Shown here in pieces: positions 1 through 153 of a stretch of 7,306 nt of DNA. The notes below the pieces were generated by a model. It searched no databases. It was not told the DNA's origin and saw nothing but the letters and a program-made list of their open reading frames with translations. The DNA comes from Naegleria gruberi (Eukaryota), in the NCBI GenBank assembly GCA_000004985.1, contig GG739148.1; one strand, 5' to 3'. The translations under genes and the position numbers were made by a program. Numbering within the stretch: the stretch's first letter is position 1; each line of letters opens with the position of its first letter.

Positions 1-153
1 ACCCAAACCCAAACCCAAACCCAAACCCAAACCCAAACCCAAACCCAAACCCAAACCCAAACCCAAACCCAAACCCAAACCCAACCCAAACCCAAACCCA
101 AACCCAAACCCAACCCAAACCCAAACCCAAACCCAAACCCAAACCCAAACCCA
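1..153. repeat. Telomeric repeat tract shown as the C-rich strand. Units from position 2: 13x CCCAAA, CCCAA, 4x CCCAAA, CCCAA, 6x CCCAAA, then a terminal CCCA. The G-strand equivalent is (TTTGGG)n running toward the window start, which marks a chromosome left terminus.
   Basis: Read directly. A perfect hexamer array begins at base 1 of the window, with the C-rich strand 5'->3' reading inward as expected for a left-end telomere. There are two one-base-shortened variant units at 80-84 and 109-113. The tract ends abruptly at 153, before unique AT-rich sequence. Confidence 0.88.

Follow-up and report, generated by a model that had tools for sequence, protein, structure and literature searches.

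A terminal TTTGGG array on a small Naegleria gruberi scaffold as the probable inner part of a telomere

Introduction

Canonical telomeres of the TnAmGo type, with units such as TTAGGG, TTTAGGG, and TTGGGG, are terminal arrays of a short G/T-rich unit, in which the G-rich strand points 3' outward and a subtelomeric repeat adjoins the inner side. The trypanosomatids, the best-studied relatives of Naegleria within Discoba, use TTAGGG. In the ciliate Paramecium, a mixture of TTGGGG and TTTGGG units is made from one telomerase RNA, the short template of which is copied imprecisely (PMC5855555).

For Naegleria gruberi itself a candidate unit is on record. Fulneckova et al. (2013, Genome Biol Evol 5:468, PMC3622300) screened 143 genome assemblies for arrays of the TnAmGo type and judged them on position and orientation. 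In the passages relevant here, TTTGGG is given as the candidate telomere repeat of N. gruberi, is placed with the unexpected candidate telomeric repeats, and is said to dominate the terminal regions of the scaffolds; the assembly was the same as the one used here. Those passages also state that genomes with occasional terminal repeats only, or with large internal blocks, were classed as inconclusive, and that the terminal position of the candidates still needs experimental confirmation.

Here we describe a (CCCAAA)n/(TTTGGG)n array at the end of one small scaffold from this assembly. It agrees with the published candidate, as described in those passages of PMC3622300, in organism, assembly, unit, and criteria; nothing essential differs, and both are based on sequence. 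Like the telomeres of Paramecium, the array contains TTTGGG units; unlike the G4T2/G3T3 mixture of Paramecium, its variants are 5-nt TTGGG units only, and N. gruberi is a heterolobosean (Discoba) rather than a ciliate. It shares with the canonical telomeres the short G/T-rich unit, the terminal position, the outward 3' end of the G strand, and the adjoining subtelomeric repeat. In contrast to TTAGGG and TTTAGGG, however, its unit is without A and has the ciliate-like TnGm form.

Results

Architecture of the scaffold

The window, by which we mean the whole stretch of 7,306 bp that was analyzed, is a complete, small, and unplaced scaffold of N. gruberi. It is made up of a 910-bp contig, a run of 5,008 N (positions 911 to 5918, 69% of the scaffold), and a 1,388-bp contig; the known bases therefore number 2,298 of 7,306 (positions 1 to 910 and 5919 to 7306). 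Because the window is the whole record, base 1 is the true end of the scaffold. The 910-bp contig, which bears the array, is tied to the gene-bearing 1,388-bp contig through the 5,008-N gap only. Since 910 bp is about the length of one Sanger read, and since the join is made by the gap alone, both the linkage of the two contigs and the base accuracy of the array stand on scant data.

The terminal array

The array occupies positions 1 to 153 on the plus strand, with the C-rich strand as written. It reads A, (CCCAAA)13, CCCAA, (CCCAAA)4, CCCAA, (CCCAAA)6, and CCCA, which gives 23 perfect CCCAAA units and 2 CCCAA units, closed by CCCA at positions 150 to 153. An earlier note, made from the letters of the window, had described the same array, and on recount its coordinates, its unit counts, and its positions for the two variants (80 to 84 and 109 to 113) all proved exact. 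Tandem Repeats Finder, run on the window, reported positions 1 to 153 as a repeat of period 6 with 25.8 copies, 97% matches, and a score of 292. There are 17 copies of the 18-mer (CCCAAA)3 in the whole window, every one on the plus strand and inside positions 2 to 149, against an expected count of 0.00 from 200 dinucleotide-preserving shuffles. The array is not a chance product; the shuffles gave none.

The unit falls among the short (5- to 8-nt) G/T-rich tandem repeats, and the G-rich strand runs outward, both as in a telomerase-type telomere. The G-rich (TTTGGG)n strand reads 5' to 3' toward the scaffold end, and the C-rich strand reads inward from base 1. The same note had taken the array to be oriented as a left end, and this is borne out, with the C-rich strand 5' at base 1 and all of the (CCCAAA)3 matches on the plus strand. 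No substitutions are found among the units of the array, and 23 of the 25 full units are perfect. In the rest of the window we found no TTTGGG, TTGGGG, TTAGGG, or TTTAGGG. Positions 1 to 153 contain no CCCCAA units and no second repeat type; the sole CCCCAA in the window is isolated, at position 7043. A variable telomere of the Paramecium type was considered for the array and rejected, as interspersed TTGGGG is absent (0 CCCCAA among 25 units).

The two variant units are CCCAA (TTGGG on the G strand) at positions 80 to 84 and 109 to 113 of the plus strand, 69 nt and 40 nt, respectively, from the subtelomere junction. Each has lost one A, and both represent the same type of event, a single-base contraction of the A3/T3 run. 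Judged from the units themselves, this pattern fits homopolymer slippage (of telomerase or of a replicative polymerase) and not general microsatellite decay.

Junction and subtelomeric repeat

The junction between the array and the subtelomere lies within positions 150 to 160 of the plus strand, where CCCA is followed directly by TCACTTC. It is sharp: no zone of degenerate telomere units was found at positions 150 to 160, and the DNA just inward of the array is unique sequence, beginning TCACTTCAATC... A unit of the subtelomeric repeat starts exactly at this junction, as can be seen by comparison with AACATCACTCC at about positions 461 to 471.

The flank from 154 to 910 is AT-rich (29% G+C) and carries a degenerate direct repeat of about 304 to 310 bp. 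Copy 1 spans positions 154 to 463, and copy 2 spans 464 to 771; copy 3 (772 to 910) is partial, cut by the end of the contig. Two repeat families within the flank, D1 and D2, show spacings of 310, 308, and 304. The local alignment of copies 1 and 2 scored 62, where shuffles averaged 20.5 (z of 15.7), and their global identity was 63%. The comparison of copy 2 with the partial copy 3 gave a z of 8.6 over shuffles, and that of copy 1 with copy 3 a z of 0.4, which by itself is not significant. Better-conserved cores are found at 389 to 427 and 697 to 735 (85%), and at 160 to 223, 470 to 533, and 774 to 837 (64 to 72%). No convincing gene was found in 154 to 910, and an Rfam scan of the whole window gave no match, nor was a telomerase RNA to be expected here.

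Genes inward of the gap

The right contig has a G+C content of 34%, compared with 29% for the flank of the array, and contains the 3' parts of two genes. One is a gene for a MACPF (perforin-like) protein on the plus strand (PF01823, E value of 1.6e-05), with exons at positions 5920 to 6259 and 6327 to 6904, the latter including the stop codon, and a 67-nt GT..AG intron at 6260 to 6326. Its protein is 100% identical to an entry named "predicted protein, partial [Naegleria gruberi]." A paralogue (P0002), with 43% identity, lies on a 413-kb N. gruberi scaffold, and the family is small. The other gene, on the minus strand at positions 6939 to 7306, encodes an RGS domain (PF00615, E value of 3.5e-05) and continues past the right end of the scaffold. 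The two genes are convergent, tail to tail, and their stop codons are 34 bp apart. Moving inward from the array, the MACPF gene is the first one known, and protein-coding genes lie about 6 kb in from the scaffold end.

A metagenome contig of 2,455 bp (ENA ERZ929261, contig k127_492485; L001) matched positions 5919 to 6318 with 95% DNA identity. It reaches about 2 kb into the N gap, and so there is real sequence under the Ns; the subtelomere is not covered by it. The contig supplies the N-terminal part of the MACPF gene that is absent from the window, with a protein (P0004) that is 97% identical, and on the opposite strand it has a 399-aa gene without a Pfam match. The contig points to a close relative of N. 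gruberi in that environmental sample. Exact-protein look-ups with the MACPF protein of the window (P0001) and with a 121-aa subtelomeric open reading frame (ORF) found no record, and a look-up with P0004 returned the L001 contig alone.

Terminal CCCAAA arrays in environmental sequences

Metagenome and viral contigs were scanned for (CCCAAA)5, which was meant as an independent test of the telomere reading; an array was counted as terminal if no more than 30 nt separated it from the end of its contig. The scan returned 148 matching stretches, mostly internal arrays. The telomeric orientation was found in 15 of the 24 terminal arrays and the reverse orientation in 9 (P = 0.15). The subtelomere of the window (154 to 910) is shared by none of the surveyed (CCCAAA)n contigs. 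Given the split of 15 to 9, and given the contig LUMJ01000369.1 (L115), terminal position with orientation is generally a weak test.

The latter contig has (CCCAAA)10 at positions 5 to 68, at the contig end and in "telomeric" orientation, next to dense, prokaryote-like, and apparently archaeal ORFs. By translation, these include cobalamin-synthesis-like methyltransferases, a glycyl-tRNA-synthetase-like protein, and an endonuclease-IV-like protein. The array could be the product of a chimeric join, or a microsatellite that lies there by coincidence, and it serves as a warning that not every terminal array is a telomere.

Five contigs of one metagenome, the WGS set JAESGV01 (L011, L054, L057, L076, and L097), end in perfectly pure (TTTGGG)n arrays of 7 to 17 units, all five in the telomeric orientation (P = 0.03), and each array is sharply joined to a different AT-rich DNA (22 to 38% G+C). 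Two of them, L011 and L076, carry long standard-code ORFs of up to 1,028 aa. From their sequence, the five contigs look like those of a eukaryote with a TTTGGG telomere. This organism is probably not a close relative of Naegleria: a flippase-like ORF of L011 matched metagenome proteins only, and no Naegleria protein.

A further terminal and correctly oriented array, of 16 TTTGGG units, lies at positions 6040 to 6141 of contig Ga0100402_1016031 (L013; 26% G+C). Its outermost unit is a single TTGGGG, which makes for a Paramecium-like mixture; the N. gruberi array is without such a unit.

Discussion

We conclude that positions 1 to 153 belong to a genuine N. gruberi telomere, the inner part of which was captured where this small unplaced scaffold ends, and we put the probability of this at roughly 85%. 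The evidence within the window (terminal position in the assembly, orientation, purity, and a subtelomere-like flank) is suggestive. By itself it is not conclusive, because assemblies break at internal microsatellites too; the end of an assembly need not equal a physical DNA end, and orientation on its own is a one-in-two test. The decisive support comes from beyond the window, namely, from the account of N. gruberi in PMC3622300.

The chromosome terminus proposed in the earlier note is thus upheld, in that the array is terminal and pure, has an outward G strand, and consists of the candidate repeat that PMC3622300 gives for this species. It is backed but not new, because PMC3622300 had already named TTTGGG for N. 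gruberi. A second statement of that note, that the G3T3 unit is otherwise known as one of the two units made by telomerases of the Paramecium type, is not supported as it was worded, since TTTGGG is on record for this species; the array, moreover, has 0 CCCCAA. What is new from the window is the fine structure of a single end, with two TTGGG variants among its 25 units, an abrupt junction, and a subtelomeric repeat of about 308 bp. The published candidate repeat is confirmed for one scaffold. This scaffold can now be marked as a chromosome end, which helps to finish the assembly; otherwise the result means little beyond bookkeeping.

Given a real telomere, the two CCCAA units can be explained in two ways, and we give about equal weight to true slippage, by telomerase or in replication, and to base-calling error. 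On the latter explanation, to which we assign even odds, the telomere is real and the two units are sequencing or assembly errors, in which AAA was undercalled in a low-coverage Sanger contig. The length of the contig is in keeping with this: at 910 bp, about one Sanger read, coverage was probably one to a few reads. Both variants share one type of error, the loss of a single homopolymer base, with no substitutions. Loss of a homopolymer base is a typical error in the tails of Sanger reads. The other correctly oriented terminal arrays from metagenomes are perfectly pure, which also favors an error here, with the limit that a short-read consensus would mask rare variants. Against an undercall, the other 140-odd bases are free of errors, which argues for decent read quality, and both telomerase and replicative polymerases can, mechanistically, slip with ease on a T3/A3 run. 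Variable lengths of T and G runs are, furthermore, well known elsewhere, as in the TTGGGG and TTTGGG units of Paramecium (PMC5855555).

The earlier note had read the two variants as telomerase slippage or misincorporation rather than microsatellite drift. General microsatellite decay does not fit the two units, as both show the same single-base loss and the array has no substitutions. Telomerase slippage is possible, but an undercalled AAA accounts equally well for CCCAA in a contig of 910 bp, about one Sanger read, that is joined through a gap. A stronger proposal takes the TTGGG units as real and the telomerase of Naegleria as inherently prone to slip when it copies the A3 tract in its template; we regard this as tentative, and rather doubtful. 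If it were true, Naegleria telomeres would hold several per cent of 5-nt units, and Naegleria would be the second natural case of a variable-repeat telomerase after Paramecium, in a deep-branching lineage of Discoba, which would be of modest interest.

Two other explanations question the telomere or its origin. The first is that the array is an internal (CCCAAA)n microsatellite that only looks terminal because the Sanger assembly broke there. Simple repeats often break assemblies, and this scaffold is tiny and unplaced. Among the terminal (CCCAAA)n arrays of metagenome and viral contigs, the wrong orientation is common (9/24), and, in the relevant passages of PMC3622300, most genomes with a candidate at scaffold ends also had internal short stretches or large blocks of it. 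The array, however, has the telomeric orientation and a subtelomere-like flank, and 23 of its 25 units are perfect, with no substitutions, whereas old interstitial tracts usually degenerate. The same passages of PMC3622300 count TTTGGG in N. gruberi among the convincing terminal patterns and not among the inconclusive ones. An interstitial tract is, on this evidence, improbable. The second explanation, that the 910-bp contig is foreign (for example, from a ciliate of the Paramecium type) or a chimeric clone misjoined to N. gruberi genes, draws on the join by mate pairs across 5,008 N only and on the TTTGGG units of Paramecium telomeres (PMC5855555), yet we consider it very improbable indeed, as the array has no CCCCAA among its 25 units, unlike the Paramecium mixture, the composition of the flank (29% G+C) fits that of the right contig, which is AT-rich and N. 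gruberi-like (34%), and TTTGGG is the candidate terminal repeat given for the N. gruberi assembly in those passages of PMC3622300.

With the array taken as a telomere, one would pass inward from (TTTGGG)n, across a sharp junction, into an AT-rich degenerate repeat of about 308 bp, and would reach coding genes about 6 kb from the end. A telomere followed by a tandem subtelomeric repeat and then by genes within a few kilobases is the usual chromosome end of a compact protist genome. As the mechanism we propose a conventional telomerase, which would extend the G strand at its 3' end by one TTTGGG after another. Its RNA template would carry a permutation of CCCAAA, for example, CAAACCCAAA. The window gives the sequence, orientation, and position of the array; synthesis by telomerase, a G overhang, and the true length of the telomere are inferred.

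Searchable literature held nothing relevant on a Naegleria telomerase RNA, on TERT, or on long-read assemblies or telomeres of Naegleria. The reverse transcriptase region of human TERT, a query that was checked against PDB entries, was also run against a collection of 5.8 billion proteins; the best 120 of 301 matches came from animals, fungi, and metagenomes, with none from Naegleria among these 120. A published phylogeny of TRF proteins (PMC6175992) contains a TRF-like Myb protein from N. fowleri, the sister species; this suggests that telomere-binding machinery is present in the genus.
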